Of a stretch of DNA of 32,000 nt, positions 664-18,002 are shown in pieces. Position 1 is the first letter of the stretch; every line of letters begins with the position of its first letter. Made by a program: the position numbers and the translations under genes. The stretch comes from Candidatus Saccharimonadota bacterium (GTDB lineage Bacteria; Patescibacteriota; Microgenomatia; UBA1406; GWC2-37-13), in the NCBI GenBank assembly GCA_001790095.1, contig MGBH01000001.1, positions 990,001 through 1,022,000 on the forward strand. Direction: 5' to 3'. Below the pieces are notes generated by a model, which made no database searches, had not been told where the DNA came from, and saw nothing but the letters and a program-made list of their open reading frames with translations.

Positions 664-2853
664 TTGTACAATATCTCTATGTTTAAAAAGTTCCCCCTTA
701 TTTTTTTGTGTGTACTTCTCTTTTATACCCGCTTTGTTGGTCTAGACTGGGGGTTGCCATACCCTATGCATCCTGATGAACGCAATATGGCCGTCGCAGT
801 TCAGCAACTTACCTGTAAAGGGTTGGGGCCAATCGCCTATCTCCAACCGCTAACCGAATGTCTGAATCCTCACTTTTTTGCGTATGGACAGTTTCCGATC
901 TATCTTGCATATTTTGGCATACTCATATTCCATTTTTTGCAAGGCATAAAAGCTCCTCCTGGTTTTATTGAGGCTACGATGGCTTTGCGAACAATCTCGG
1001 CATTAGCCTCAGTAGCAAATGCTTTTGTATTGTTTCGTATCATCGAATTTTCAATTTTAGATTTTCAATTTTCAAACAAATCTCATTCTAAAAATTCAAA
1101 AAATAAAAAATTGAATGAAAATTGGTTATTGAAAATTGGTTCATTCCTGGTCTTGATATTCTCTCCTTACTTCATCCAATTCTCCCATTTTGGTACCACC
1201 GAGTCACTTCTTATGCTCTTTTATTCTTTCATCATTTACGAATGCATCAAGCTCATTCAGAACAAAAACCTAAACACTAACTACTATCTACTAGCTACTA
1301 TTTCAGGAATTGCAATCGCCACAAAAGTTTCCTCCGTACTGTTTTTAGCCGTACCTGTCGTGTTTATAGGTATAAAAACAGGTTTGAGAAGTCTAACTGT
1401 ACTCTTTACTCTTTCCCGCTTTATTCTTCTTACCATGCTCGTCTCTATCATCTTTTCTCCCCACAACATCATCTCCCTTGAAGAGTTTGCGGGCTCGATG
1501 AACTATGAATCAGCGGTGGCAATCGGAAGCTATGTTGCCTTTTACACCAAACAGTTTGTCAATGCTCCCCCCCTTATATTTCAACTGACTAAGATTTTCC
1601 CTTTTGTATTGGGTTGGCCTCAATTTATATTGTCTGTCCTTGGTCTTCTTGTCTTATCATGGAGAGATAAAAGGATAAACGTGCTTCGATTTGCTTTTAT
1701 CGTTTTTTTTCTTCCGAATGCGTTTGTATTTGCAAAATGGACACGATTTATGACGCCTATTTTCCCGATTTTAAGCTTATTTACAATTCTCACACTTTGC
1801 AAACTTCTTAAAGTTTTCCAAAACAAATTCTCAATTATCAATGATCAATTTTCAATCATTTATCGAAAACTGAAAATTGAACGTTGGAGGTGTATTGAAA
1901 ATTGGAAATTGAAAATTGATCATTCTATAGTTTTTATATTAATCACTATAGTAATTCTCCCCGGTATCGCATACCTTTCTATCTACCAAACACCTGATGT
2001 CCGTTTTAGGGCTTCGAAGTGGATCTATAAATATATCTCCCCGGGCTCAAAGATCCTTTCTGAGACAGCCAACGTGATAGATATCCCCATTCCTCCACCA
2101 AACTACCACCCGCCAATTGCTAACTACCAAATCGTATCTTTTGATTTCTACAATCTTGACCAGAATCCAACCCTCCCTCCTCAACTAAACCAGTTTGTTA
2201 AAACCGCTGATTATATTTTTATTCCATCCAGACGCATATTTGCAAATCATCCCAAACTTCAGTATCCCCTCCTCAACAAGTATTACCAAGATCTGTATTC
2301 GGGAGGCCTGGGATATGAAAAAGTAGCAGAGTTCACCTCTTACCCAAAGATCAGCCTGTTTGGAAAGACTATCCTTGAACTGCCGGATGAGGGAGCTGAG
2401 GAAACATGGAGTGTGTTTGATCACCCGGTCATCAGAATATATAAAAAAGTTTCAAATTCCAAATTACAAATCACAAATGACAAACAAATTACAAATAACA
2501 AAATTCAAAACCCTCAACTGGATTTTTCAAACTACCAAACTACTAACTACCAACTACAGACTACTAATTACCACCTTCTTATCGCCGATACTCCCCAAAA
2601 GTGGGAAAAGGGCCTTATGTATGTACAAAACAGAGAAGATATTGGAGGATATGATGGTATGATATTTATGTTTCCGGATAGCAAAAAAAGATCTTTTTGG
2701 AATAAAAATACGTTTATTGATCTTGATATATATTGGATGAATGATGATAAAATCGCGGGAACAACCATGCTCCCCTCTATCGAAAAATCAAAAGATACGA
2801 TCATCACAACTTCGTCATCTGAAGTCAATGCGGTGATTGAGATTATCCAATAA
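664..2853 (+). CDS. GT-C fold (PMT/ArnT-like, GT39/83-type) lipid-carrier-dependent membrane glycosyltransferase fused to a C-terminal DUF192 domain
   Basis: 729-aa track ORF. The track start is TTG at 664. The first ATG is at 679 (MFKKFPLIFL...), preceded by TACAAT at 667-672. There are many hydrophobic segments, and the first loop 'GLDWGLPYPMHPDE' is typical of PMT/ArnT-like GT-C enzymes. The last ~95 aa ('ADTPQKWEKGLMYV..GMIFMF..SFWNKNTFIDLDIYWMNDD') follow the DUF192/COG1430 signature (A-x-T..GLM, GMLF, FWMKNT..PLDI). Three low-complexity segments are encoded by repeat DNA (see repeat features). Confidence 0.7.
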   Translation: MYNISMFKKFPLIFLCVLLFYTRFVGLDWGLPYPMHPDERNMAVAVQQLTCKGLGPIAYLQPLTECLNPHFFAYGQFPIYLAYFGILIFHFLQGIKAPPGFIEATMALRTISALASVANAFVLFRIIEFSILDFQFSNKSHSKNSKNKKLNENWLLKIGSFLVLIFSPYFIQFSHFGTTESLLMLFYSFIIYECIKLIQNKNLNTNYYLLATISGIAIATKVSSVLFLAVPVVFIGIKTGLRSLTVLFTLSRFILLTMLVSIIFSPHNIISLEEFAGSMNYESAVAIGSYVAFYTKQFVNAPPLIFQLTKIFPFVLGWPQFILSVLGLLVLSWRDKRINVLRFAFIVFFLPNAFVFAKWTRFMTPIFPILSLFTILTLCKLLKVFQNKFSIINDQFSIIYRKLKIERWRCIENWKLKIDHSIVFILITIVILPGIAYLSIYQTPDVRFRASKWIYKYISPGSKILSETANVIDIPIPPPNYHPPIANYQIVSFDFYNLDQNPTLPPQLNQFVKTADYIFIPSRRIFANHPKLQYPLLNKYYQDLYSGGLGYEKVAEFTSYPKISLFGKTILELPDEGAEETWSVFDHPVIRIYKKVSNSKLQITNDKQITNNKIQNPQLDFSNYQTTNYQLQTTNYHLLIADTPQKWEKGLMYVQNREDIGGYDGMIFMFPDSKKRSFWNKNTFIDLDIYWMNDDKIAGTTMLPSIEKSKDTIITTSSSEVNAVIEIIQ
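1045..1142. repeat. in-frame imperfect palindromic element built from CAATTTT/AAAATTG heptamers (insertion 1 in the GT-C gene)
   Basis: Left arm is gaattttcaattttagattttcaattttcaaac. The reverse complement of the right arm is gaaccaattttcaataaccaattttcattcaa, which shares AATTTTCAAT and ATTTTCA blocks with the left arm. Translated as SILDFQFSNKSHSKNSKNKKLNENWLLKIG between two hydrophobic segments. Confidence 0.7.
1839..1925. repeat. in-frame palindromic element (insertion 2 in the GT-C gene)
   Basis: Perfect 17-nt inverted repeat: aatgatcaattttcaat (1840-1856) and attgaaaattgatcatt (1908-1924). The spacer is rich in gaaaatt units. Translated as FSIINDQFSIIYRKLKIERWRCIENWKLKIDHS between hydrophobic segments. 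Confidence 0.75.
2449..2575. repeat. in-frame heptamer tandem-repeat block (CAAATNA units, then AACTAC-type units) linking the GT-C body to the DUF192 domain
   Basis: caaattc caaatta caaatca caaatga ... caaataa, followed by actaccaaactactaactaccaactacagactactaattacc. Translated as SNSKLQITNDKQITNNKIQNPQLDFSNYQTTNYQLQTTNYHL. Same unit family as the intergenic hairpins at 8437-8509 and 11309-11410. Confidence 0.65.
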
Positions 2854-2859
2854 TAAACA

Positions 2860-4080
2860 CTATTTTAACCAACCTGTTCCATTATTTACTCTCTCATGAG
2901 CTCTTGATTTCATAGGGTGTGGCTTACTTATTCCTTTATTTGATCCTTTCGATGGGTTAAATTTTGCTTTTTGTTTTCTTTTTGGAAATGATGCTTCAAG
3001 TTCTGTTGGATCTATAATCAATCCGACTCTTCCAGCTAAAAACGACATCCATGTTGCTTCAGGTGAGGGACGTTTTTTTTGCATCATTCTTGCAAATGAT
3101 TCTTTCTGAACGTCTCTGGCGCTCATCATAGCCGCTTCTGATACTCCATATTCTTCTAAAAGATCCACAAACTGATTCTCTTTTGGAGAATAATCCGCTC
3201 CTTGATCGCGATTGTGTCTTATGGTATCAAGTGCATCTTCATATGGCACTGTTCCACTATTTACAGCATCAATAAGAGGATAATAATACATGTAGGCAGA
3301 TATATTATGTGCACTATCATTCTGTCCTGTTATCTTTTGCATAAATCCAAGTAAATCTGAATTTTGATGCATAACAATTAACTCATCCATTGATATTCCG
3401 TACTCTTCAGCAAGAGCGATCATTAAATATCCTCCTTGTCCATATGACGTACGTCTGCGCACACCTAATTGTTGACCTTTATAAAGTTCTACAGCATCGG
3501 CAAGTGCTTCGCCATAGGCAGGAAGTGCCTCTCTTCCCTCCTCAGCTAGTGAAGGTACAACCATTGAAAATCCATCATAGAAAACCTCATCTTCTTCTGG
3601 CACACCAATTGAAGCAAGAACCTCTGGAGGAACAGGTGCTCGTGTAACATTTAAATGAGTAGCTTCATGATCTATTGCTCCTTGAGTAAGTTCTGCCCTT
3701 GCGGGTCCTCCATAGATAGTGGTTCTATGCTCATTAGTTGAATAATCATACTCCGTAGTCATTGAATACTTCCCCAGAGGATCTGGCTGCATATTTAGGT
3801 CTGTCCTACTTACAAGATCATCCGGATTACAGTTACCAGCTAAACCAGAACAATATGCTCCATAGACCAAAGCAAGCGCTTCCCTCATATCTACTCCCTC
3901 AGGAAAAACTGGCGCCTCAATACTTTCCGGGAGTCTTTGTATTTGCTCAACCTGAGAAGGTTGACCTGCACACCCAACCAACAAATAGTTTAAAACCATA
4001 AAGAATAACACATGGTTCAAAGATGGGTGGTGATGTTTTCTGCCCTGCTTTTCTACATATGAAGTATGTATTTCTTTCAT
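2860..4080 (-). CDS. putative lipoprotein with an HExxH zinc-metallopeptidase motif
   Basis: 406 aa. N-terminal hydrophobic segment ending in the lipobox-like 'LLVGC'. Single 'HEATH' (HExxH) motif in 'GAIDHEATHLNV'. No specific peptidase family recognised. Confidence 0.45.
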   Translation of the reverse strand: MKEIHTSYVEKQGRKHHHPSLNHVLFFMVLNYLLVGCAGQPSQVEQIQRLPESIEAPVFPEGVDMREALALVYGAYCSGLAGNCNPDDLVSRTDLNMQPDPLGKYSMTTEYDYSTNEHRTTIYGGPARAELTQGAIDHEATHLNVTRAPVPPEVLASIGVPEEDEVFYDGFSMVVPSLAEEGREALPAYGEALADAVELYKGQQLGVRRRTSYGQGGYLMIALAEEYGISMDELIVMHQNSDLLGFMQKITGQNDSAHNISAYMYYYPLIDAVNSGTVPYEDALDTIRHNRDQGADYSPKENQFVDLLEEYGVSEAAMMSARDVQKESFARMMQKKRPSPEATWMSFLAGRVGLIIDPTELEASFPKRKQKAKFNPSKGSNKGISKPHPMKSRAHERVNNGTGWLK

Positions 4081-4140
4081 GCAAGATAGTATACTATACT
4101 ATCTTATAGTATACAAGCTTATTATACTAATTACTCTTCC
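4081..4140 (-). promoter_or_regulatory. promoter/operator-like region upstream of the HExxH lipoprotein gene
   Basis: On the minus strand, TATACT (4093..4088) lies 7 nt before ATG 4080, and a further TATAAT lies upstream. The region consists of repeated tagtatac/tatact words, including the inverted repeat gatagta-tacta-tactatc (4085-4103). Confidence 0.3.
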
Positions 4141-5007
4141 TTAATTATCTATACCGCAGTACCATTGTATATCTTTTAGATTTAGCCCTGAACCCTTATA
4201 CTCATAATTACCACATGTTTTACAACGCTTGTTTTGATCATTGCACGCATCAAAACAATCAGGAACAGAACTATAAAACACTTTTGCATCTACCTTTTCA
4301 CAAGCGTGAAGATTCATCTCGCAGGGTTTATTGCAGCAAACAGTGTCCCTATATCCATATCCATTTTGATTTACATACTGCTGCATTTCTGAAGAAACTG
4401 ACCGATTCTGATGCAATGCATCTATTTGTTCCATTGTTGATATCTTAAAATAAGCCGGTGAGAGTTCATCGCACATATTAAACACGCCTCCGGAAAGCCA
4501 ATTGCCATTACACAAAGATCCTTTATTTTGATTGCACCAAGTAGCAAGATTCAATACCGGTTCTTTTTTGAATACTGTTGATTCCCCAAGTCGACACACA
4601 CCTTTAAATATTTCTGTTGCTCTTCCGGTTGTATTTACTTTTGGAAATGACACTACAAAACAAGGATAATCGATCCCTTCTTTACACGAGGTTAAAGAGT
4701 CAGTAATTCTTGGAGTTACGTTTTCATAATAATAATCCCCGTCATTATCTCCTGGTTTAAAGAATGTTTGGCCCCAGCAATCTTCCTTTTTTTGAATATA
4801 TACACTAAATCTGTCTGTTGTTTCGATGTACTGATCAAGATCTTTTGCAAATATTTTTGTAAAAAAAACGGGGTTAGAAGAAGCTTTGGGATTAGATGAT
4901 ATGTTCTTTATTTTACCTAAAGAGAGGCTTACCCACAAAACGATCGCCAAGATAAGACCGATAGATAAAAAAGTGAGATATTGTTTTGAAAAACATAGTT
5001 TATTCAT
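4141..5007 (-). CDS. secreted or membrane-anchored cysteine-rich protein, unknown function
   Basis: 288 aa. N-terminal hydrophobic anchor 'LTFLSIGLILAIVLWVSLSL'. Many Cys, clustered in the C-terminal third (TVCCNKPCEMNLHACEK..DCFDACNDQNKRCKTCGNYEY..WYCGIDN). No family recognised. Confidence 0.5.
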   Translation of the reverse strand: MNKLCFSKQYLTFLSIGLILAIVLWVSLSLGKIKNISSNPKASSNPVFFTKIFAKDLDQYIETTDRFSVYIQKKEDCWGQTFFKPGDNDGDYYYENVTPRITDSLTSCKEGIDYPCFVVSFPKVNTTGRATEIFKGVCRLGESTVFKKEPVLNLATWCNQNKGSLCNGNWLSGGVFNMCDELSPAYFKISTMEQIDALHQNRSVSSEMQQYVNQNGYGYRDTVCCNKPCEMNLHACEKVDAKVFYSSVPDCFDACNDQNKRCKTCGNYEYKGSGLNLKDIQWYCGIDN

Positions 5008-5058
5008 ATAAATTCATGATATAGACAAAGCAGTGCTTTTACAAGATCTATCTCTGTT

Positions 5059-6108
5059 TTATTTTTTAACTATTTTAAATACTGTTGGTGGATAGATAGA
5101 TAAGTCTTCAAGGATTATCCTCCCTTTTTGAGTAGGTTTGTTCAGATTCCAATCATAAATTCCAAGCTCACCCTCATCATCTATCGTATACGCACTGTAA
5201 TGAAGCTTGTCTTTATTAACAAGACCAATGATTTTGGCGATATAATCAGTATCTTCTTTTGATCCGAAATCTTCTCTATATACTCCTCCAAACTCACCAA
5301 CCAGTACTGGACAATCGTACATCACCTTCTCCCACAAAACCCCATATACAAGATGACCACTACTATCTTGAGCTTCCTGAGCATTCATCCAAGGATAATC
5401 ATGGAAATCACATATCACATTATCAATGGAAAGTGGATTCTTTTCATCGAAAATACGACCATACTGAACGCCTGTCATGAGTATAATGGCATTGGGGTTA
5501 TGTGCTCGAACATATGCTGAGGTTGATCGTGCAACCTTTTCCCATACAACCCATGGAATATCGCGCGGCTCAGCCCATAATCCATACATAATATGCTGTT
5601 CTGCCTTATACCTCTTTGCAACATGTTCCAACATCTGGGGAAACCGTGCCACTTGCGTTAAGCCATCATGAGAGGTGTCTTTAACATTTATCGCCGGCAT
5701 TACATAGAGATATATACTATTTTGTCTTGACCAAGCCACAATCTCATCTAATAAAGCATCTTTGCCTTGTGTCTGGTAGGGGTTTATATATATACCCAGA
5801 AGATTTATGTTCCACTCCTTCACCCTATCCAAACGTTTCATGAACTTATTTTTTGAAGTAAGCCCATTGGTCAATATCATACTTGTAACTCCTTTTAGTT
5901 GGACTATTTCGTCTGTGTCTTTTCTACGTATCTTATTTCCTTTTACATACAAAAGTGGGGGTCTATCTAGGACTGAAGGGGAAATTGTTTTTGCTTTTTT
6001 TATTGATGGGAGAGGTTTTTGAACACTTTTTACCCGCATAAAAAAAAAGGAAAGTGCGACCAATAAAATAAGAAGAGTAAAGAAAAAAACTTTTTTCGTC
6101 ATAACCAT
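5059..6108 (-). CDS. secreted glycoside hydrolase, GH5 (cellulase-family)-like
   Basis: 349 aa with an N-terminal signal/anchor. Motifs are placed as in GH5: 'YGLWAEPRD' (acid/base Glu of the N-E-P motif, with Asn replaced by Ala), 'CDFHDYPW' (H-x-Y), and 'PVLVGEFGG' (nucleophile Glu in the GEFG motif). Confidence 0.55.
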   Translation of the reverse strand: MVMTKKVFFFTLLILLVALSFFFMRVKSVQKPLPSIKKAKTISPSVLDRPPLLYVKGNKIRRKDTDEIVQLKGVTSMILTNGLTSKNKFMKRLDRVKEWNINLLGIYINPYQTQGKDALLDEIVAWSRQNSIYLYVMPAINVKDTSHDGLTQVARFPQMLEHVAKRYKAEQHIMYGLWAEPRDIPWVVWEKVARSTSAYVRAHNPNAIILMTGVQYGRIFDEKNPLSIDNVICDFHDYPWMNAQEAQDSSGHLVYGVLWEKVMYDCPVLVGEFGGVYREDFGSKEDTDYIAKIIGLVNKDKLHYSAYTIDDEGELGIYDWNLNKPTQKGRIILEDLSIYPPTVFKIVKK

Positions 6109-7405: not shown

Positions 7406-8419
7406 TTAACAAAAATCAGACACTCTTTCCACCAAATCAACAATTCTTGTGGCATAACCCCATTCATTGTCATACCATCCAAATATCTTGAGCAATTTTC
7501 CACCAATAACCTTTGTGTAATTGGAGTCAAATATACATGAGTGTGAATCACCAATAAAATCACTTGACACAAGCGGGGCGGTTTCATAAGACAAAATACC
7601 CTTCATTACACCTGCAGCATATGTTTTAAAAGCTGAGTTCACTTCTTCAGCCGTTACATCTTTTTTCATGACAGCTGAGATATCAGTGAATGAGACTGTT
7701 GGAGTAGGCACTCGCACAGCCATACCATCAAGTTTACCAGCAAGTTCTGGGATAACTTTGCCTACTGCTTTTGCCGCTCCGGTTGTGGATGGGCCTATGT
7801 TGAGAGCTGCAGCACGGGATCTGTCAGGTTTTTTATTTGCTTCATCCAAAAGAGACTGGGTTGCGGTGTAAGAATGTACGGTGGTTAGATATCCCATCTC
7901 AACGCCAAACTCCTTTTCAATTACTTTAAACATAGGAGCTGCACAGTTGGTCGTACAGGATGCGTTTGAGATCACTTGTTCACTCTTCCAATCGATCTTA
8001 TCATCGTTTACTCCCAAAACTACATGAGTCGTCTCTTTGTCCTTTGACGGAGCGGTCAGAAGCACTTTTTTCACCGTTCCTTTTATATGTTTCATCAGAT
8101 CCTCTTTTTTGGTGAAGGCGCCTGTTGCATCGATTACCACATCAACCCCCCTTGACTCCCATGGGATAGCGTCAATATCAGCGATCATTGAGGCAGGGAT
8201 CTTTGTTCCATCAATGGTTATGCCATCCTCAACCGCTTCAACTTTTTTCCCGAATCTTCTATACACTGAGTCGTATTGCAAAAGATATGCCAACATATCA
8301 GGAGAGGTTTTGCGGGTATTGATAGCTACGATATCAAACGTATTCCGCTCACTTACAATGCGGGTAACTGCTCTTCCTATTCTTCCGAAACCATTTAGTC
8401 CGACTTTAATTTTTTTCAT
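7406..8419 (-). CDS. gap: type I glyceraldehyde-3-phosphate dehydrogenase
   Basis: 337 aa. 'GLNGFGRIGR' NAD-binding motif and the 'SNASCTTNC' active-site motif. Confidence 0.95.
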   Translation of the reverse strand: MKKIKVGLNGFGRIGRAVTRIVSERNTFDIVAINTRKTSPDMLAYLLQYDSVYRRFGKKVEAVEDGITIDGTKIPASMIADIDAIPWESRGVDVVIDATGAFTKKEDLMKHIKGTVKKVLLTAPSKDKETTHVVLGVNDDKIDWKSEQVISNASCTTNCAAPMFKVIEKEFGVEMGYLTTVHSYTATQSLLDEANKKPDRSRAAALNIGPSTTGAAKAVGKVIPELAGKLDGMAVRVPTPTVSFTDISAVMKKDVTAEEVNSAFKTYAAGVMKGILSYETAPLVSSDFIGDSHSCIFDSNYTKVIGGKLLKIFGWYDNEWGYATRIVDLVERVSDFC

Positions 8420-8436
8420 AATAATGAATCAATCGC

Positions 8437-8509
8437 AAATGTCAAATCTCAAAACTCAAATCTTGTTATAGATTTACGATTTGAAATGTAGATTTGCCAT
8501 TTGACATTT
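8437..8509 (-). terminator. heptamer-repeat hairpin downstream of fbp (candidate terminator or RNA-stability element)
   Basis: Outer stem aaatgtcaaat (8437-8447) pairs with atttgacattt (8499-8509). Inner stem aaatct (8458-8463) pairs with agattt (8470-8475) around the loop tgttat. The arms are tandem CAAATNT heptamers. An A/T-rich stretch follows on the minus strand. Confidence 0.5.
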
Positions 8510-8524
8510 AAGATCTAAAATAAC

Positions 8525-10917: not shown

Positions 10918-11346
10918 ATGAAAGACTGTGTGTTTTGCAAAATAGTAACTGGGAAAATTCCAAGCTACAAGGTCTACGAGGATAACGATTTTATGGGATT
11001 TTTAGACATTGCTCCTCTTAATCCAGGAAACGTGCTTCTTATCCCCAAAACACACTACCACTGGGTGTACGATGCGCCAAATATGGGGAAGTATTTTGAA
11101 GTAGCAAGAAAAATAGGAATCGCCGCCCAAAAAGCCGTTGGGGCACACTCTATCAACTTTTTAACGCTTGGATACGAAGTACCTCATGCGCATATCCGTA
11201 TCATCCCCCGTTTTGATAATGATGGCCACACCGACGGTATTCGGCTAAGCGCAGTAAAAAAGATTGCACCAGATGAGATGAAAAAAATAGCAGAGCATAT
11301 TTTGAAGAATATCAAATCTCAAATGTCAAAAGTCAAATCTACATAG
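10918..11346 (+). CDS. HIT-family (histidine triad) nucleotide hydrolase/transferase
   Basis: 142 aa. 'CVFCKI' N-terminus and the histidine triad 'VPHAHIRIIP'. The last ~13 aa (KNIKSQMSKVKST) are encoded by the left arm of the heptamer hairpin. Confidence 0.85.
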   Translation: MKDCVFCKIVTGKIPSYKVYEDNDFMGFLDIAPLNPGNVLLIPKTHYHWVYDAPNMGKYFEVARKIGIAAQKAVGAHSINFLTLGYEVPHAHIRIIPRFDNDGHTDGIRLSAVKKIAPDEMKKIAEHILKNIKSQMSKVKST

Positions 11347-11410
11347 TAGATAACAAATATTTTATATTTGAAATGTCTATTTGAGATCTACCATTTGAAA
11401 TTTGACATAT
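11309..11410. terminator. long imperfect heptamer-repeat hairpin between convergent genes (candidate bidirectional terminator)
   Basis: Left arm is tcaaatc tcaaatg tcaaaag tcaaatc tacat. Right arm is atttgaaatgtctatttgagatctaccatttgaaatttgacat. It lies between the HIT gene (+) and the PilX-like gene (-), and overlaps both 3' ends. Confidence 0.45.
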
Positions 11411-12292: not shown

Positions 12293-15200
12293 TTATTGTA
12301 TCTGTTTCCAATCATACATACTTATTGACAAATATGGCAACAAATCAAGATATTGACGTTGATCCATAGCGATAAACAATGATGGTCTTTGTAAATTTTG
12401 AAGTTGCCTTCCGTTTTCAAAGGTAGGCGTACCTGATTGATGAACAAGACCCCCTTTTATTTTAAGGGCAAGGTCTTCAGTATTGCCTGTTGTTACATTG
12501 TTGCCAATCAAAATCGCTTGCACCTCAGTGACAGTTGAGGAGATGGTAATATCTCTTGCAACGATCGCTATTGCAGCATTACCAACCGATGCGCTGTTTA
12601 AATCAATATTGATTCCAATCCTATTCTGATCAGCTACAAGAACAATTTTTTTGTTAACAAAATAAGATGAGTCGTTTATGTCTATGTCACTTCCCACATA
12701 ATAGATTCCATCTCCCACAATATCTGCAAGCTGCGTAATAGTCTTGTATTCCTTACGTGACTTCATATACTCTGCGTATTTTGTTGGAGTAAAGCTATGA
12801 AGCTGTATATAGGATGTGTTATACCAGTTAGGCTCTGAGTATTGAGTCGCATTTGGACCAAGTCTTAGATTGCCAGCACTTAAGATGCCACCTGCATTAT
12901 TCACAATAAGATATTTGTCAAGCGTATCGTCCGTATCTGAGTCTGTATATTTAAGCATGTTGTTGGGGATGATGCTTGACCTGCCAGATCTAAGATTGTC
13001 ATAAGAAACGTTACCCATCTTAAGCCACGATGAGGGAACAGAGAAAAATACAGGAATCGTTGGGACTACGCCGGGTGGCACAATGGGGGTTGGAGTAATA
13101 CTCCCTCCAAACGGTGTAGGGGTGGGAGGAAGCGGTGTTGCGGTTGGAATGGGTGTACTGGTTGGACTCACTTCTCCTGTTGGGATCGGAGTTAGAGTCG
13201 GACCGCCAGGAGTAACAGTTGGGATCGGAGTTAGAGTTGGACCGCCCGGAGTTATGGTTGGAGTCGGGGTCAGAGTTGGTCCGCCCGGAGTTATGGTTGG
13301 AGTCGGGGTCAGAGTTGGTCCGCCCGGAGTTATGGTTGGGGTTGGCGTTGATGTAGGGCCAACGGGTGTTGGAGTTAAAGTTGGCGTTGAAGTTGGAGCG
13401 TTAGTTGGGGTCGGTGTCAGAGTCGGACCGCCAGGAGTTATAGAAGGAGACGGAGTAGGACTCAAAAGACAGATTGTTATTATCTCAAGATACTCCCCTC
13501 CACATTGATTACTTTGACGCCAATCAACATTACCATAATCGCCATAAGTAGCAGAAAGAGTCATGTCAAAGCATGGCGGTATACAATCTCCTCCTTGATT
13601 ATCAACAATAAGGTTGCAACTATAGTTGGAGGGTGTTTTTGTACAAGTAGATGTGACACCAGGAGGTACGGTGACTTGTAGATCAAGCTGGTCCGGATCA
13701 ATATTCATACTTGTACTACAACTTGTACCTAAATCTTCAATATATTTTCCTTGGATATTGATAGTTGGATAGGGAGATGGAGTAGGTATGGTATAGATAG
13801 TAGTAGTCCAGCCTGAGGTATTGGTAAAACTATCCCGCGCCCTTACTCTCCCATAAAAAGTAGTTCCTCCTGGATATGATTGCTGAAGTGCCTGCTGTGT
13901 CGTATTGACCCAACTATTACTCCAACCTGAAGCAAGAGGACTATAGTCACTTTCTGTTGATACCTCTGATTGATATGGAAGAGCATTTAAACCACCACAT
14001 CCTCCATCGGTAGTTGTGTTCCATTTATAAGAGGCAAAATAATTTTCTCGGCAGTCAGGATCCGGATAAATGCTAACAAATGCTGCTCCACCTGGGGGAG
14101 TTGGAGCTGTTTGATCTATTGAAAGAGCGCGGCTTGGTGCAGGAATAGCAGGTGTCGTACATTTGATTGGAGCAGCTGTTGAACGTCCTCGTGCGCCCCA
14201 GTAATAAGTACCTGTACCAGTTACGCTACATGAGGCATAGCTAACAGGATTTGCGCTTGCAAGCCATCCGCTGTTACAACTCCACGGACTACCAAAACCA
14301 GTATCAGTATCTACTCCAAACTGTATCTGGTCTGAACAAGTATCATATGAGGCTGAAAGAGCGGGAATATTATTATAGCAACCTGATGCTGGCGACTGTC
14401 CGCTTACTCCACAGGTTGGAGCTATAAGATTATAGTTATATACTGTCGAACAGGTCTCTGCTGCTCCGTTTGAAGCACATATTTGAGCTGTCCCACTCCA
14501 TGCGCTTAGCGATATAGTATTATCCGTCCTTGCCGTATAGAGAATTCCTGTTTTTACTTCCACCCCGTTGATCAACAAACGGAATTGGTTGGTACGGGTT
14601 CCACATACGTATCCCCATCCTTGACTACACCCGTTGTTGTTATTGGGAAAGGTCCAGTCAACATCATACCGTTGAGTACAACCAGCCGCAGTATATAATG
14701 TCACTGAACTTACTACGGGTTGCAGGGGTGATGAATCAATACAGCAAGAACGTGAATCAGTTCCTCCACATGCAACTGAAGGAGAGCTACATGAACAAGC
14801 ACAGTTATTCTCAGCTCCAGGATTACAGGTTCGCTCTTCATTGCCGGTCCCACATGCAACACTACAAGAACCCCAGCTTCCCCAGCTTGCAGTACGGGTC
14901 GTACCAGCAGGAGTACATGTATCAACTCCTCCATTATAACCAGGTATCCATCCGCATGATGCACCAGTGCATCCGACATGCTGACCCGTACAGGTAAACC
15001 CAGCCCAGCTTGTTTGGCATCCGCTATACGGATAACTTTCTCCTGACTTTATACCCTGAAGAGCTTGTTCATAATAAGTGTCAGGACTTACGCTCACGTA
15101 GATGCTCGGTTGCGCCACCGGAGCAATAAACTGATCTCCTGCAGCGGGTGAATTCCAATCACCAAGTGGGCTTTTGTTTAATCGAACAGCGTATGCAGCA

Positions 15201-15868
15201 GCCCCAGCTAATGTATTCCAAGATATGGCAGCATTTGCTCCCCTTGTAGAACAGGAAACAACCACGTTGCTTGTACAGGGAAGTGGGGTTGGAGTGGGAG
15301 TGGATGTGGGGATGGGAGTAGATGTGGGGATGGGAGTGGATGTGGGGATGGGAGTAGATGTGGGGATGGGAGTAGAGCTGGGAGAAAAAACTGTAGGGAC
15401 GGGAGTAGAGCTGGGAGGAACTGTAGGAACTGGAGTATCTCCAGGCTCTTCAGTAGGACTCACACATGCATCACAACAACCAACTACCGAATTATCTCCC
15501 GATCCACCTATACATGGATAATAGGTACTATATTTAGTTGCACAATTACACAGTCCCCCTGGAACAGTTACTTCACAAACTGAAGAGCAAAGTATTGGAG
15601 AGTCACATCCATGAGTCACATTTGCACAATATCCAGTATCAACAGGCCCTATCCATTGACATGATTCGCAGCATATATCTCCAGGATGGTTCCAGCTATC
15701 ACCACTACAACTAGGTCCTCCTCCTACTCCACAATAACCCACTGGACAATCATAAGCAGCATGTAATAGTGTTGGTTTTATCACAAAAAAACTGAAAACA
15801 AATATGTTCACTATAATGAATAGCATTATTTGTTTATTGCTCTTGTTTTTAACACTTAAGATGTTCAT
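12293..15868 (-). CDS. large secreted/surface protein: Cys-rich N-terminal module, Pro/Thr tandem-repeat linkers, TSP1-like motif, unknown C-terminal domain
   Basis: 1191 aa. N-terminal anchor/signal 'IMLFIIVNIFVFSFFVI'. Dense Cys in residues ~40-135. (STPIPT)n and (TPTPTITPGGPTL)n repeats. 'SWGSWGSCSVACGTGNEERTC' at residues ~327-349. Confidence 0.6.
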   Translation of the reverse strand: MNILSVKNKSNKQIMLFIIVNIFVFSFFVIKPTLLHAAYDCPVGYCGVGGGPSCSGDSWNHPGDICCESCQWIGPVDTGYCANVTHGCDSPILCSSVCEVTVPGGLCNCATKYSTYYPCIGGSGDNSVVGCCDACVSPTEEPGDTPVPTVPPSSTPVPTVFSPSSTPIPTSTPIPTSTPIPTSTPIPTSTPTPTPLPCTSNVVVSCSTRGANAAISWNTLAGAAAYAVRLNKSPLGDWNSPAAGDQFIAPVAQPSIYVSVSPDTYYEQALQGIKSGESYPYSGCQTSWAGFTCTGQHVGCTGASCGWIPGYNGGVDTCTPAGTTRTASWGSWGSCSVACGTGNEERTCNPGAENNCACSCSSPSVACGGTDSRSCCIDSSPLQPVVSSVTLYTAAGCTQRYDVDWTFPNNNNGCSQGWGYVCGTRTNQFRLLINGVEVKTGILYTARTDNTISLSAWSGTAQICASNGAAETCSTVYNYNLIAPTCGVSGQSPASGCYNNIPALSASYDTCSDQIQFGVDTDTGFGSPWSCNSGWLASANPVSYASCSVTGTGTYYWGARGRSTAAPIKCTTPAIPAPSRALSIDQTAPTPPGGAAFVSIYPDPDCRENYFASYKWNTTTDGGCGGLNALPYQSEVSTESDYSPLASGWSNSWVNTTQQALQQSYPGGTTFYGRVRARDSFTNTSGWTTTIYTIPTPSPYPTINIQGKYIEDLGTSCSTSMNIDPDQLDLQVTVPPGVTSTCTKTPSNYSCNLIVDNQGGDCIPPCFDMTLSATYGDYGNVDWRQSNQCGGEYLEIITICLLSPTPSPSITPGGPTLTPTPTNAPTSTPTLTPTPVGPTSTPTPTITPGGPTLTPTPTITPGGPTLTPTPTITPGGPTLTPIPTVTPGGPTLTPIPTGEVSPTSTPIPTATPLPPTPTPFGGSITPTPIVPPGVVPTIPVFFSVPSSWLKMGNVSYDNLRSGRSSIIPNNMLKYTDSDTDDTLDKYLIVNNAGGILSAGNLRLGPNATQYSEPNWYNTSYIQLHSFTPTKYAEYMKSRKEYKTITQLADIVGDGIYYVGSDIDINDSSYFVNKKIVLVADQNRIGINIDLNSASVGNAAIAIVARDITISSTVTEVQAILIGNNVTTGNTEDLALKIKGGLVHQSGTPTFENGRQLQNLQRPSLFIAMDQRQYLDLLPYLSISMYDWKQIQ
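13188..13343 (-). repeat. 4 x 39-bp coding tandem repeat (TPTxTPGGPTLTP units)
   Basis: Units at 13188-13226, 13227-13265, 13266-13304 and 13305-13343. Units 3 and 4 are nearly identical. A partial further unit lies around 13408-13440. Confidence 0.85.
15296..15385 (-). repeat. about 4.5 x 18-bp coding tandem repeat (STPIPT units)
   Basis: gggagtRgatgtggggat repeated from 15296 (15296-15313, 15314-15331, 15332-15349, 15350-15367, then degenerate). Confidence 0.85.
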
Positions 15869-15877
15869 ATATTAAAT

Positions 15878-16687
15878 TCAATCAATTCTATTTACAGTAC
15901 TAAACAGCAATAGATTAGGATCCAAGACACCATTTTCTAGAAAGTTCATTAACGAAGTATGATAATTTGGATCTTCTAAAAAAGGCTTCATTACGTTTTG
16001 ATAGAAAACCCAATTAGAATCCATACCTCTAAGACTGGTAAATTGTAGTAAGATCATTACGTCTCCTCGTTGAGCGTTTGAAGTAAAAGGATGTGATTCT
16101 TCAATAAAGCTTTTCCACCAATTAAAATCTTGTAACTGTTCAGGGGTGGGAGCAAAAGTTATACCCGCCTGACTCATAAATGTCGTTGTGGCTTCTATCG
16201 TCTGTCCATTGATATATATTGTGCCATCAGAAGCTCTCACAACAAGGTTTTGCGCAAAATTGACAACCTGTCCATCTATAACATAACTACCTTGAAATCT
16301 AACCAGTGAGTCTCCTACTCTTTCCTCGTTTAAATATAGAGGTTCTGCCCCATATTCTGCTCCATGATAAAAAGCACGTATATTATACCAATCTGTTCTG
16401 TTGTCTCCGCTTTTGGTAGACGAGGCGAAAACATCTTTATATTTAGAACCAACCTTTATTTCAATCTGTTTGTTTAATGGCAATAATGTGAACTTTTTTT
16501 CTTCTTCCTTTTCGCGGATATACTGAACAAGCAGTATCATAATAAAGACAAATTCGATAAAAAAGATAAAGAAGAATAAAAAGAAAATAGGACTTGGTTT
16601 TTTACGCCTAGCGGTGCGAGAAATATCATTATGAAGCGGGTGATTTACAACCATATATTCATTATAACGCAACTGCAGAAAAATCAA
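15878..16687 (-). CDS. membrane-anchored protein carrying the shared ~177-aa C-terminal domain (paralogous to the C-terminus of the 801-aa lipoprotein)
   Basis: 269-aa track ORF that starts at TTG. The more likely start is ATG 16654 (MVVNHPL...), with TATAAT (16666..16661) 6 nt upstream. TM segment 'IFFLFFFIFFIEFVFIMILLV'. Residues 93-269 are almost identical to the C-terminus of the 17974..20379 product. Confidence 0.6.
   Translation of the reverse strand: MIFLQLRYNEYMVVNHPLHNDISRTARRKKPSPIFFLFFFIFFIEFVFIMILLVQYIREKEEEKKFTLLPLNKQIEIKVGSKYKDVFASSTKSGDNRTDWYNIRAFYHGAEYGAEPLYLNEERVGDSLVRFQGSYVIDGQVVNFAQNLVVRASDGTIYINGQTIEATTTFMSQAGITFAPTPEQLQDFNWWKSFIEESHPFTSNAQRGDVMILLQFTSLRGMDSNWVFYQNVMKPFLEDPNYHTSLMNFLENGVLDPNLLLFSTVNRID
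15899..16413. repeat. 515-bp direct repeat, copy 1 (partner 17998-18512)
   Basis: Constant offset of 2099 nt with no indels. 16015-16413 equals 18114-18512 exactly (399 bp, checked line by line). A ~62-bp patch (15954-16014) carries ~23 substitutions. The distal ~55 bp are identical again. Confidence 0.9.
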
Positions 16688-16712: not shown

Positions 16713-18002
16713 ATGGTTAGTTATCTTCCAAAAACCATCTTTGTTTTGTTTTTTACCCTTATTTTTTTACTTGAGGGCCTATCTTTTAAAAAAGGAAGAG
16801 AGATCTCATATGTACTTATTTTGTGTATGCCGTCTTTTTTATTTTACCTTCATTTTATGTTTAAAAATAGAATAAAATTAAGCCCGTTTGTGGGGTTTGT
16901 CAGCGCCCTTTATATTGTGTTTGTTTCGTTGTCTGCTCTTTCCTCTAAACAAATAAACGTCTCTATTGAGGGCGTATTACTTACAATTGCAGTCGTCTCA
17001 CTTTTTATTTATTCTTCATACCATAGAGACGAATTACAAAACATAGTCCTTGCTATGATAATGATTTTGTCATTTGTTTTTATCAGTCGTCATGTTTTGT
17101 ACCGATTAATACCAATTGATTTTGGAGGTCTACTTACTTTATCAGCATTTCAGTTTTTTTACTCTTTTTATCCAAACCATAATCAGCTTGGGACTTTTTT
17201 AACTCTTCCAATAATTACATGTTTTTTTTATCTCTTTTTTACTGCACCTTCTGTAAAGACACCAACAAGTGAGTCGTTTATCAAAAAGACAATGTCGTGG
17301 CTTCTTACAAAAAAACATATATTACTTATACTCTTTTACTTTCCTTTTTTTATTTTTTCTTATTCCCGCTCGAGTTACAATTCCGTATTTTGGACCTTTA
17401 TCCTGATGTTGTTCTATAATAGAAAAATTCTTTTTTCAAACAATTTTTTTTCTAAGAAAAAGATCGTTTTTATTATTTTGTTTGGAATCATTGTTTTGCT
17501 TATGTTTTTTATCACTGTAGAAGAAGTAAAAAGTATTCCGATTATATCTTCTCTTCATGTATGGTTACAAAAATATGCAGGTCTCGGTGGAAAAAGTTTT
17601 CTCTCAGGAAGATTCTTAATGTTCTCTGACATGTTACAAAGAGCTGAAGGAAAATACTTATTAGGGCTCGGCAAACCTCTTATATACTCTCAATCATATA
17701 CTCTCCATACAAATATTGGGTGGCCATCCCATAGTCTGATAGTCGACATCATCGCAAAACAGGGTTTGTTAAGTTTTTTTGCTTTTGTATTACTTCATGT
17801 AGTTATATTTGTCAAATCAGATAAAAGAAGTGTTTTTTTCTATCTCTGGATCAACCTTTTCATTAATTTTCTTACAAATTGGAGCTACACATTCTATTCT
17901 TTATATTGTATATACTTTATCCTACCTGGATTGATCCCTGTTATCCTTTCTTCATCTACTCAAAATAAACAATTTATTCGATCATTCTACCCAATTGACT
18001 AA
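16713..18002 (+). CDS. polytopic membrane protein, O-antigen ligase/polymerase (Wzy_C)-like
   Basis: 429 aa with many TM segments. 'FSYSRSSY' and 'SGRFLMFSDML..GLG..WPSHSLIVDIIAKQGLLSFFAFVLL' resemble the Wzy_C pattern (SR..., R..w, G-x-G, aHN.yl..l.e.G..G). TATAAT at 16701-16706 lies 6 nt before the ATG. Confidence 0.5.
   Translation: MVSYLPKTIFVLFFTLIFLLEGLSFKKGREISYVLILCMPSFLFYLHFMFKNRIKLSPFVGFVSALYIVFVSLSALSSKQINVSIEGVLLTIAVVSLFIYSSYHRDELQNIVLAMIMILSFVFISRHVLYRLIPIDFGGLLTLSAFQFFYSFYPNHNQLGTFLTLPIITCFFYLFFTAPSVKTPTSESFIKKTMSWLLTKKHILLILFYFPFFIFSYSRSSYNSVFWTFILMLFYNRKILFSNNFFSKKKIVFIILFGIIVLLMFFITVEEVKSIPIISSLHVWLQKYAGLGGKSFLSGRFLMFSDMLQRAEGKYLLGLGKPLIYSQSYTLHTNIGWPSHSLIVDIIAKQGLLSFFAFVLLHVVIFVKSDKRSVFFYLWINLFINFLTNWSYTFYSLYCIYFILPGLIPVILSSSTQNKQFIRSFYPID

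Follow-up and report, generated by a model that had tools for sequence, protein, structure and literature searches.

Translated heptanucleotide arrays in a GT-C-type membrane glycosyltransferase gene suggest a hotspot of in-frame, non-triplet repeats in Patescibacteria

The DNA considered here, referred to as the window, is a stretch of 32,000 nucleotides of contig MGBH01000001.1 (assembly GCA_001790095.1, Candidatus Saccharimonadota bacterium), which carries near its start a gene for a GT-C-fold membrane glycosyltransferase with a C-terminal DUF192 domain. Three blocks of heptanucleotide repeats (blocks 1, 2 and 3, table 1) lie within this gene, and two palindromes of the same repeat class are found in intergenic DNA of the window. 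The open reading frame (ORF) runs through the blocks for 724 codons without a stop, and the identical 724-residue protein is encoded on at least 24 independent contigs, including MGBF01000001.1 (GCA_001790045.1, Candidatus Roizmanbacteria), so that the ORF is not a sequencing artefact. Thus, the proposal of the initial annotation, made from the sequence alone, that repeat DNA is translated in frame inside an intact GT-C gene was confirmed, and the alternative it had raised, namely an ORF split by sequencing errors, was ruled out. A near-identical fragment of 481 residues (P0001) diverges from the window protein (NYHPPIANYQ versus NY--PTANC) at an AACTACC...AACTACC direct repeat (window 2101-2129), right before the end of its contig, and may be a variant or else result from misassembly at a further short repeat.

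Pfam recognizes in the window protein only the DUF192 domain (residues 634-721), while its homologues, which are named Roizmanbacteria or Microgenomates proteins, match PF13231, PF02366, PF03901 and PF11028. An AlphaFold2 model (pLDDT 83, pTM 0.75) was compared with known structures by Foldseek, yielding matches of the GT-C part to ArnT, ALG9, AglB, PglB, AftA and Pmt4, and of the C-terminus to the DUF192 structures 3pjy and 3m7a. The hexapeptide HPDERN at residues 31-36, the acidic motif of external loop 1, is invariant. As modelled, the protein combines a multi-pass N-terminal module, the acidic motif and a soluble C-terminal domain, as expected of a GT-C enzyme, and its catalytic activity is predicted.

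The model also supports the loop placement that had been suggested for the inserted segments. Block 1 corresponds to a disordered loop (residues 130-146, pLDDT below 50) between the helices formed by residues 96-126 and 149-160, block 2 to the tips of a long helical hairpin (H361-398/H403-437, pLDDT 66-69), and block 3 to a disordered linker (residues 594-612, pLDDT below 50) N-terminal of DUF192, with its AACTACN tract encoding the first two strands of that domain (E620-626 and E629-636). The C-terminal domain of known GT-C structures lies outside the cytoplasm and, by analogy with them, a cytoplasmic location is expected for the tip carrying block 2, and one on the outer face for block 1. 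GT-C orthologues that lack the DUF192 fusion stop at the site of block 3a, and in these unfused orthologues (n = 64) the gene ends in or beside a heptamer array. The idea that block 3 was once an intergenic repeat between neighbouring GT-C and DUF192 genes was not supported, as a DUF192 gene was found within 10 kb in 0 of the 64 unfused orthologues.

Table 1. Repeat features of the window and the gene that contains most of them (TRF, Tandem Repeats Finder).
Feature	Position	Strand	Basis
GT-C-fold membrane glycosyltransferase with C-terminal DUF192 fusion, 724 residues	679..2853	+	open frame, Pfam, AlphaFold2, Foldseek
Block 1 left arm, (AATTTTC)4AA with 2 substitutions, read FSILDFQFSN	1046..1075	+	TRF, 4.3 copies
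Block 1 spacer, A-rich, encodes K/N/S-rich loop; weak 7/9-nt periodicity at 1085-1112	1076..1110	+	TRF, model
Block 1 right arm, inverted cassette (decayed), encoding LNENWLLKIG	1111..1140	+	inverted repeats, translation
Extra heptamer tract, ACTAACT-like, read NLNTNYYLLAT; site repeat-bearing in orthologues too	1265..1304	+	TRF, period scan
Block 2 left arm, (AATTTTC)4AAT with 4 substitutions, read KFSIINDQFSI	1826..1856	+	TRF, inverted repeats
Block 2 spacer, 37 nt	1857..1893	+	sequence
Block 2 right arm, inverted cassette, read IENWKLKIDH; 1908-1924 pairs with 1840-1856	1894..1924	+	inverted repeats, RNA fold
Block 3a, about 8 CAAATNA units, read VSNSKLQITNDKQITNNKIQN; disordered linker after GT-C C-terminal domain	2446..2511	+	TRF, pLDDT
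Block 3b, about 6 AACTACN units, read NYQTTNYQLQTTNYH; first DUF192 strands	2528..2573	+	TRF, model
Block-encoded peptides of the window gene: NENWLLK, FSIINDQFSIIYR			
Palindrome, CAAATNT x4, spacer and inverse array, between FBPase and GAPDH genes	8430..8521	.	TRF; fold z = -3.6
Palindrome at convergent gene ends	11306..11405	.	TRF; fold z = -2.6/-4.6

When a single criterion was applied to all lags from 4 to 15, the window gave nine tracts of period 7 and, period 14 apart, only 0-3 of each other period. Of these nine tracts, six are in the GT-C gene, where they fall in four regions (1046-1140, 1265-1304, 1826-1924 and 2446-2573), that is, the three blocks already described and a tract at 1265-1304 that had been overlooked. 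TRF reported period-7 arrays in the gene at 1046-1075 (AATTTTC), 1089-1111, 1276-1300 (ACTAACT), 1826-1856, 1894-1919 (ATTGAAA), 2453-2502 (CAAATTA) and 2528-2571 (AACTACY), all imperfect (77-89% matches). Blocks 1 and 2 share the same build, with two cassettes of about 30 nt in inverted orientation set around a spacer of 35-37 nt, which gives about 99 nt in total. Their spacers show no sequence relationship, so that the heptamer arms are the only common part.

Blocks 1 and 2 had both been taken for inverted repeats, which holds well for block 2 and poorly for block 1. The arms of block 2 are 81% complementary over 1826-1856 and 1894-1924, with the perfect 17-nt stem reported initially, and the predicted RNA fold (-23.6 kcal/mol) is more stable than that of shuffled sequences (z = -2.2). 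The arms of block 1 (1039-1067/1116-1144) are only 72% complementary and a shuffled sequence folds as well (z = -0.5). Block 3 is purely tandem, as proposed, with no RNA structure detected on folding.

The sequence of the arms bears the mark of translation. A perfect GAAAATT repeat, the inverse of AATTTTC, contains TGA in every frame, and at these places the gene has TGG (NENWLLKIG and IENWKLKID). Stops are present in the other two frames of all blocks, which also ruled out a scheme in which loops would vary by frame switching between two arrays.

The distribution of such tracts was determined in 80 retrieved orthologue loci together with the syntenic locus L001 and the window (82 genes, 1.33 Mb), with 41 kb of the source genome covered and gene calls approximated by a greedy longest-ORF procedure. 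Period 7 accounted for 260 tracts, period 14 for 110 and the other periods between 4 and 15 for 7-93 each. Within the orthologue gene the corresponding figures are 165, 69 and 0-24, so that the excess is specific to periods 7 and 14. The density of period-7 tracts in the orthologue gene is 1.08/kb (165 tracts in 153 kb, which are not 165 independent events because the 82 orthologues share ancestry), about 50 times that of other coding DNA (0.022/kb, 24 tracts in 1.08 Mb), and 71 further tracts are in non-coding DNA or at its borders (0.73/kb). Hence, only 24 of the 189 coding tracts are found outside the GT-C family.

The tracts recur at about ten fixed sites, namely transmembrane helix 1, the loop between the invariant C46 and C61 (the Cys-Cys loop), 127-168 (block 1), 196-214, 234-258, 376-433 (block 2), 474-490, 530, 560-574 and the 3' end or linker (block 3). 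At one and the same site the units differ among orthologues (AAATTTC, AATTCAG, AAGTTCA, AATATCA, TTTTCAA and others), the units within one array are often identical, and no shared consensus emerged across the 260 tracts in the 82 loci. T-rich arrays encode hydrophobic segments that include transmembrane helices (FLTFTFLLLTF), and A-rich arrays encode hydrophilic loops (mean Kyte-Doolittle hydropathy, +1.04 versus -0.76). The encoded peptides are not conserved, since amino acid identity in aligned tract columns is 0.285 as opposed to 0.523 elsewhere.

The initial annotation raised the question of whether the three segments are lineage-specific insertions, and they are indeed longer than in most orthologues. 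Between conserved anchors, the window protein has 49 residues at the block 1 site (orthologue median 34.5, minimum 26), 64 at the block 2 site (the maximum of the 82; median 41.5, minimum 28) and 39 at the linker (median 30, minimum 22). However, they are not private to this genome, because the syntenic orthologue L001/L007 (56% amino acid identity) carries homologous blocks at the same places, and a peptide and DNA similar to block 3b are present in L001. Between the window and L001 the DNA of the blocks is 73% identical (third codon positions, 0.69) versus 63% (0.43) in the remainder of the gene. Over 3285 orthologue pairs no excess DNA-level conservation of the tracts beyond that expected from composition was found, and the window/L001 pair alone shows it.

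Other in-frame inserts were also observed in orthologues. They are GC-rich, have recurrent peptide ends (QVARxKG ... LTESVVL; RSGIEGSLHFGRDDN) and occupy further loop sites (L001 10820-10915, 11186-11296 and 10175-10309; columns 330-380 and 480-545 of alignment A1). In the Cys-Cys loop of L001 a heptamer palindrome (TAGAGAC and its inverse) flanks a GC-rich centre. That these inserts constitute a dispersed element was considered and abandoned, as blastn gave no further copies in the surveyed loci. Recurrent arrays were also noted at 60-80% of the length of a protein family of about 205 residues (L034 17602-17649, L035 17373-17419, L040 17015-17047, L045 17806-17851, L055 17172-17212) and at about 8% of the length of a family of about 400 residues (L027 7059-7094, L040 8007-8037, L047 2683-2714). 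The unit of some arrays is TTTAGGG/CCCTAAA (L040 8007-8037, L008 11724-11759, L019 263-301), which is the plant-type telomere repeat, probably a coincidence among many units.

Several signatures indicate that the arrays are filtered by the requirements of translation. Perfect arrays, defined by at least 18 consecutive lag-7 matches, are located in the orthologue gene in 33 of 35 cases, with one each in other coding and in non-coding DNA, and all contain 3.6-4.7 units. When the arrays were pooled with those of the metagenome loci described below, coding arrays numbered 90 at 17-20 nt, 23 at 21-26 nt, 47 at 27-34 nt and 2 at 35 nt or more, and non-coding arrays 81, 21, 17 and 8, respectively. 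Thus, coding arrays show a second mode at 27-34 nt and hardly any longer ones, as opposed to the smooth decay with a long tail of the non-coding arrays.

Changes in length follow the same rule. Among proteins that are about 98% identical, the Cys-Cys loop reads CEVQSC in one group and CEVQSPKFKVQSC (CE[VQSPKFK]VQSC) in the other, a difference of seven residues, i.e. 21 nt or three units, and a second close pair differs by seven residues (NQVQNSN) at site 487. Most of the clusters examined at 90% identity or more are without change in unit number, as exemplified by one with no change among 12 full-length members. Units free of stops in all three phases make up 68% of those in coding arrays, 23% when the antisense strand of coding arrays is considered and 30% in intergenic arrays, and 0 of the 82 orthologue genes are frameshifted. 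The 4.x-unit arrays, the seven-residue steps, the stop bias and the intact genes therefore show that the arrays are read into protein, with purifying selection acting on the frame, and are evidence against both excision at the RNA level and phase variation. Gene calls of 493 residues that seemed truncated correspond to scaffold N-gaps (L085-L087) or a contig end (L088) falling on the Cys-Cys loop array, so that heptamer arrays appear to break assemblies and to generate truncated gene calls.

Arrays of this type are not confined to the glycosyltransferase. A scan of metagenome contigs for exact (AATTTTC)4 gave at least 120 contigs with GC contents from 0.24 to 0.60, at coding and non-coding positions, and among the matches listed only two contigs are those of GT-C orthologues, with 71 of 127 arrays inside open frames that span 150 codons or more. 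In-frame readings include KFSIFNFQFS, NFQFSIFNFQ and IFNFQFSIF, and the array is in frame in the genes for TsaD, FolD, KsgA, MurG, the CCA-adding enzyme, an IleRS-like synthetase, RibF, a Mur ligase and PurL. Identical arrays of 30-32 nt, read as KFSIFNFQFS or NFQFSIFNFQ in conserved housekeeping enzymes, are carried by contigs with GC contents of 0.29-0.57 (L110 for TsaD, L178, L104 for FolD, L201 and L157 for KsgA, L106 for MurG, L190, L205, L208, L153 and L128); 11 (AATTTTC)4 matches are on viral contigs.

Among the matches listed, the arrays are mostly of 30-34 nt, nearly all begin exactly with AATTTTC and are flanked by A, and the phase A|(AATTTTC)4AA|A is found in 27 of the 28 arrays of 30 nt. 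The same listed contigs contain 158 other period-7 tracts (214/Mb, versus 8-68/Mb for other periods except 14). In general, array density is 0.022-0.2/kb in coding and 0.7-1.6/kb in non-coding DNA, a relation that is reversed in the GT-C family.

The TsaD family, the named members of which are from Patescibacteria, provides an example of a loop in which the array may be absent, decayed (KFSISNSQFS, ENAKIKNQNE, ESNPKSQILNPKS) or perfect (L110). The TsaD genes of L110 and L221 are 96.4% identical at the nucleotide level, and every difference lies within some 85 nt surrounding the repeat loop, which therefore points to the import by recombination of a short segment that swapped one heptamer-derived loop for another. 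Thus, heptamer arrays are a general feature of these genomes, of which the GT-C family is the extreme case.

The intergenic palindromes of the window (TRF period-7 cores at 8431-8463 and 11308-11340) have the same build as blocks 1 and 2 with CAAATNT as the unit. The earlier proposal that the same class of heptamer repeats occupies intergenic palindromes and coding DNA is thus borne out, also by their folding (table 1). The relatedness of the units themselves, as it had been stated, applies to the period, the architecture and the block 3 unit (CAAATNA), which is nearly the same, but not to the AATTTTC units of blocks 1 and 2. A HIT-family ORF (10918-11346) extends into the left arm of the second palindrome (11306-11341), so that its last 12 residues (KNIKSQMSKVKS) are repeat-encoded; its orthologue in L001 is ten residues shorter (132 versus 142). 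Units such as TTGACAT and TTGAAAA create -35-like hexamers (8418-8445 on the minus strand, 8494-8521 and 1895-1931 on the plus strand), and of all promoter-like matches in the first 12.5 kb the best one (11 of 12 positions) is found within the intergenic palindrome directly 5' of the GAPDH start codon.

By taking into account all these observations, the explanation that is favoured, with a probability of roughly 0.55, is that the heptamer arrays are born by slippage, filtered for frame and stops, and tolerated in loops. The GT-C family would then be, at slightly better than even odds, a hotspot of in-frame non-triplet repeats that extends over the clade, and not the target of a jumping element of the Rickettsia type. 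With similar confidence, the array type itself, about four heptamer units (about 30 nt) that are solitary or paired in inverse orientation on either side of a spacer of about 36 nt, seems to be common in genomes of Patescibacteria, likewise termed the candidate phyla radiation (CPR), and the blocks of the window gene are somewhat more easily seen as old, partly decayed copies of such arrays than as anything else.

The arrays would originate and be renewed at their sites, most likely through slippage or stuttering of replication, the inverted pairs would most likely derive from intra-strand template switching, and recombination would carry alleles between strains. In coding DNA three filters then operate, as the patterns described above show. 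The length change has to be a multiple of three, which a gain of 21 nt, from about 1.x to 4.x units, satisfies. The phases that are read have to be free of stops, consistent with units made of an A-run, a T-run and a C and with the change of TGA to TGG in inverted arms. Finally, arrays survive only where about ten extra residues are tolerated.

A-rich arrays yield loops rich in K, N, Q and S, and T-rich arrays helix segments rich in F, L and I, as their translation shows. The GT-C family appears to be exceptionally permissive, with about ten sites that comprise the Cys-Cys loop of the first external loop, inter-helix loops, the tip (predicted to be cytoplasmic) of the last helical hairpin, loops on the surface of the C-terminal domain, and the linker or 3' end. 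In the gene of the window, a loop is extended by block 1 and the last helical hairpin by block 2, and block 3 is a flexible tether for DUF192. The repeats are regarded as tolerated, fast-evolving filler. An origin in place followed by filtering explains why sites are fixed while units change, the 21-nt steps and the 4.x-unit mode of coding arrays, as well as the stop-free unit bias, the TGA-to-TGG changes and the rapid divergence of the peptides.

However, several findings sit uneasily with this explanation. A stepwise growth from one to four units by slippage requires frameshifted intermediates, and such alleles were found in 0 of the 82 genes. Slippage from random seeds predicts no preferred start phase, as opposed to the one observed in 27 of 28 listed arrays of 30 nt, and the occurrence of an identical AT-rich array of 30 nt in contigs of 24-60% GC resembles the insertion of a ready-made cassette. 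The density of arrays in gene loops equals or exceeds that of non-coding DNA, so that tolerance alone may not explain the hotspot. Furthermore, the better conservation of the blocks at synonymous sites between the window and L001 and the hairpin of block 2 kept in both hint at a constraint at the nucleic acid level.

Since the start phase, the GC-rich contigs, the lack of intermediates and the loop density are not accounted for by slippage, the insertion of a tiny mobile or templated element must be considered, although it is deemed unlikely. The element would be either the four-unit cassette of about 30 nt or the inverted composite of about 99 nt, similar to a Rickettsia palindromic element (RPE) or to a miniature inverted-repeat transposable element, placed by a dedicated mechanism, with the in-frame copies persisting. 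Blocks 1 and 2 are alike in build and size, including spacers of 35 and 37 nt, and both of their arms recur at an equal spacing of 780 nt; however, the spacers are unrelated, and the units differ widely from site to site. The identical array with its fixed start phase and A flanks on at least 120 contigs, at coding and non-coding sites and in many unrelated housekeeping genes, is likewise in favour of such an element. However, a perfect inverse arm, with TGA in every frame, would truncate the protein on arrival.

Neighbouring arrays are inverted in 10 of 17 pairs outside the gene, in favour of an element, but in only 6 of 41 pairs inside it. The sharing of units is higher within than between genes or loci (25% versus 15%, and 28% versus 12%), again in its favour, whereas the 21-nt indel between close strains fits the gain or loss of units. 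No target-site duplication is evident by eye at the block edges, where no systematic test was made and a transposase was not sought, nor are there conserved ends beyond the repeat, and an exhaustive search, though of low power, found no other protein with the block 2 peptide. Were an element of this kind at work, CPR bacteria, and possibly others, would harbour an undescribed process that writes fixed-phase four-unit heptamer cassettes of about 30 nt, sometimes as inverted pairs, a doubtful prospect. An ultra-small mobile or templated repeat would then keep adding peptides of about ten residues to essential proteins and could build transmembrane helices and linkers, with the GT-C family as its preferred or most tolerant target.

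A role at the level of the nucleic acid, in which the palindromic blocks, chiefly block 2, would be kept as mRNA or DNA structure and their translation would be a side effect, is quite improbable, but retains some weight because the block 2 hairpin is retained. The structure could act as a pause or processing site before the last transmembrane helix, as an internal terminator or as an internal promoter. Block 2 folds beyond shuffled sequences in both the window and L001 (z = -3.2) at a protein identity of 56%, the synonymous-site identity of the blocks in this pair is high, as given above, and palindromic heptamer pairs are present at the block 2 site in L006, L010 and L059 and at the block 1 site in L009. 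However, the predicted hairpins of the window and L001 are in different registers, so that a supposed compensatory base pair between them was discarded, blocks 1 and 3 are without significant structure, and arrays inside the gene are mostly solitary. The excess of DNA conservation shown by this one pair is not found over all orthologue pairs. With respect to specific functions, the right arm of block 2 contains -35-like and -10-like matches (1895-1931), but no terminator-type T run is present, the scan for intrinsic terminators revealed no canonical terminator at any repeat, and Rfam gave no family match anywhere in the window.

Heptanucleotide repeats are reported to mediate phase variation in Neisseria pglE and at the Haemophilus hmw promoters. 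That the arrays form a contingency locus, in which slippage by 7 nt in either direction toggles a surface glycosyltransferase on and off, is very improbable, for although the repeat is non-triplet, the Cys-Cys loop of some orthologues has perfect four-unit arrays close to the 5' end, one strain pair differs there by three units, and three scaffold gaps and one contig end fall exactly on that array, no orthologue of the 82 is frameshifted and only indels of seven residues are seen, at least 24 contigs encode the window protein without any change, most clusters of at least 90% identity examined show no variation in repeat number, the arrays are imperfect in the window and perfect only over about four units in orthologues, a gene may contain up to seven of them, unlike a switch, and the same arrays are present in the genes for TsaD, FolD and the IleRS-like synthetase, which are generally regarded as essential.

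Other repeats were noted in the window. A 1191-residue ORF on the minus strand (12293-15868), with no Pfam match, contains in-frame tandem repeats of 39 and 18 nt at 13179-13339 and 15295-15437, and the same gene is called at 990, 1166 and 1178 residues on other contigs of the same species, so that strains differ in the number of repeats. Two stretches of about 0.5 kb (15899-16400 and 17998-18500, 93-98% identical) form a direct repeat, which makes up the 3' parts of two ORFs on the minus strand (269 and 801 residues) and brackets a plus-strand ORF of 429 residues (16713-18002, 30% GC, no Pfam match); an insertion or a cassette for gene conversion could be the explanation. Three minus-strand genes (2860-6108) that separate the GT-C gene from the PGK gene encode proteins of 406 and 288 residues and a 349-residue member of a cellulase family, and these three are absent from the L001 locus, which is otherwise syntenic.

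Non-triplet tandem repeats are usually excluded from coding DNA or serve as on/off switches. Here, arrays of 7-nt units are regular building material of intact proteins in a major uncultivated bacterial lineage, where they provide loops, a helix extension, transmembrane segments and a linker, and they represent a countable source of protein length variation and of de novo peptides in reduced genomes. They also inflate the 'hypothetical' low-complexity regions of CPR annotations, and what generates four-unit heptamer arrays becomes a testable question. Neither a report linking heptanucleotide repeats with Patescibacteria nor any account of the phenomenon was found in the searchable literature.

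The initial annotation likened the blocks to RPEs, with which they share the features of repeat DNA of about 100 nt, palindromic in block 2 and weakly so in block 1, that is inserted in frame in an intact gene and translated at tolerant loop or surface positions (PMC10969869). RPEs form families of about 150 bp, each with conserved sequence and peptide, and 44 insertions in unrelated genes are known in R. conorii (PMC10969869). In-frame translation is also seen here, from the open ORF, the TGG in place of TGA, the absence of frameshifts and the stop filter. The assignment to an RPE-like family was nevertheless rejected. Instead of a discrete consensus conserved in many copies, only the arms with their 7-nt period are common to the copies in the 41 kb covered, with unrelated spacers and units that vary by site and genome; instead of many unrelated genes of one genome, 165 of the 189 coding tracts of the 82 loci are in one gene family, at fixed sites that change by gain and loss of units.

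The contingency loci of Neisseria and Haemophilus glycosyltransferases similarly have a non-triplet tandem repeat inside a glycosyltransferase ORF, but neither a frame-shifting on/off polymorphism nor a long perfect tract was found here, where many short, four-unit arrays are present per gene. The small dispersed repeats of Nostoc, of 21-27 nt and associated with heptameric tandem repeats, which Elhai et al. (2008, as cited in PMC3116915) reportedly proposed to be mobile, have a fixed sequence, unlike the present arrays, in which nothing is fixed beyond the repeat unit.

There is also a similarity with heptameric simple sequence repeats, which are over-represented in bacteria, with a preference for four units in Xanthomonas and Nostoc (PMC4692102). 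These repeats, which include the short tandemly repeated repetitive sequences of cyanobacteria and the GGGNATC units of Xanthomonas and Nostoc, are likewise dispersed arrays of 7-nt units, about four in number, that are frequent at gene ends or over stop codons (PMC4692102). The arrays described here differ in having AT-rich units with a single C or G, in being translated in many cases and in having their hotspot in one gene family. With tandem, dispersed 7-nt units and a preferred number of about four, the blocks belong with the heptameric simple sequence repeats.

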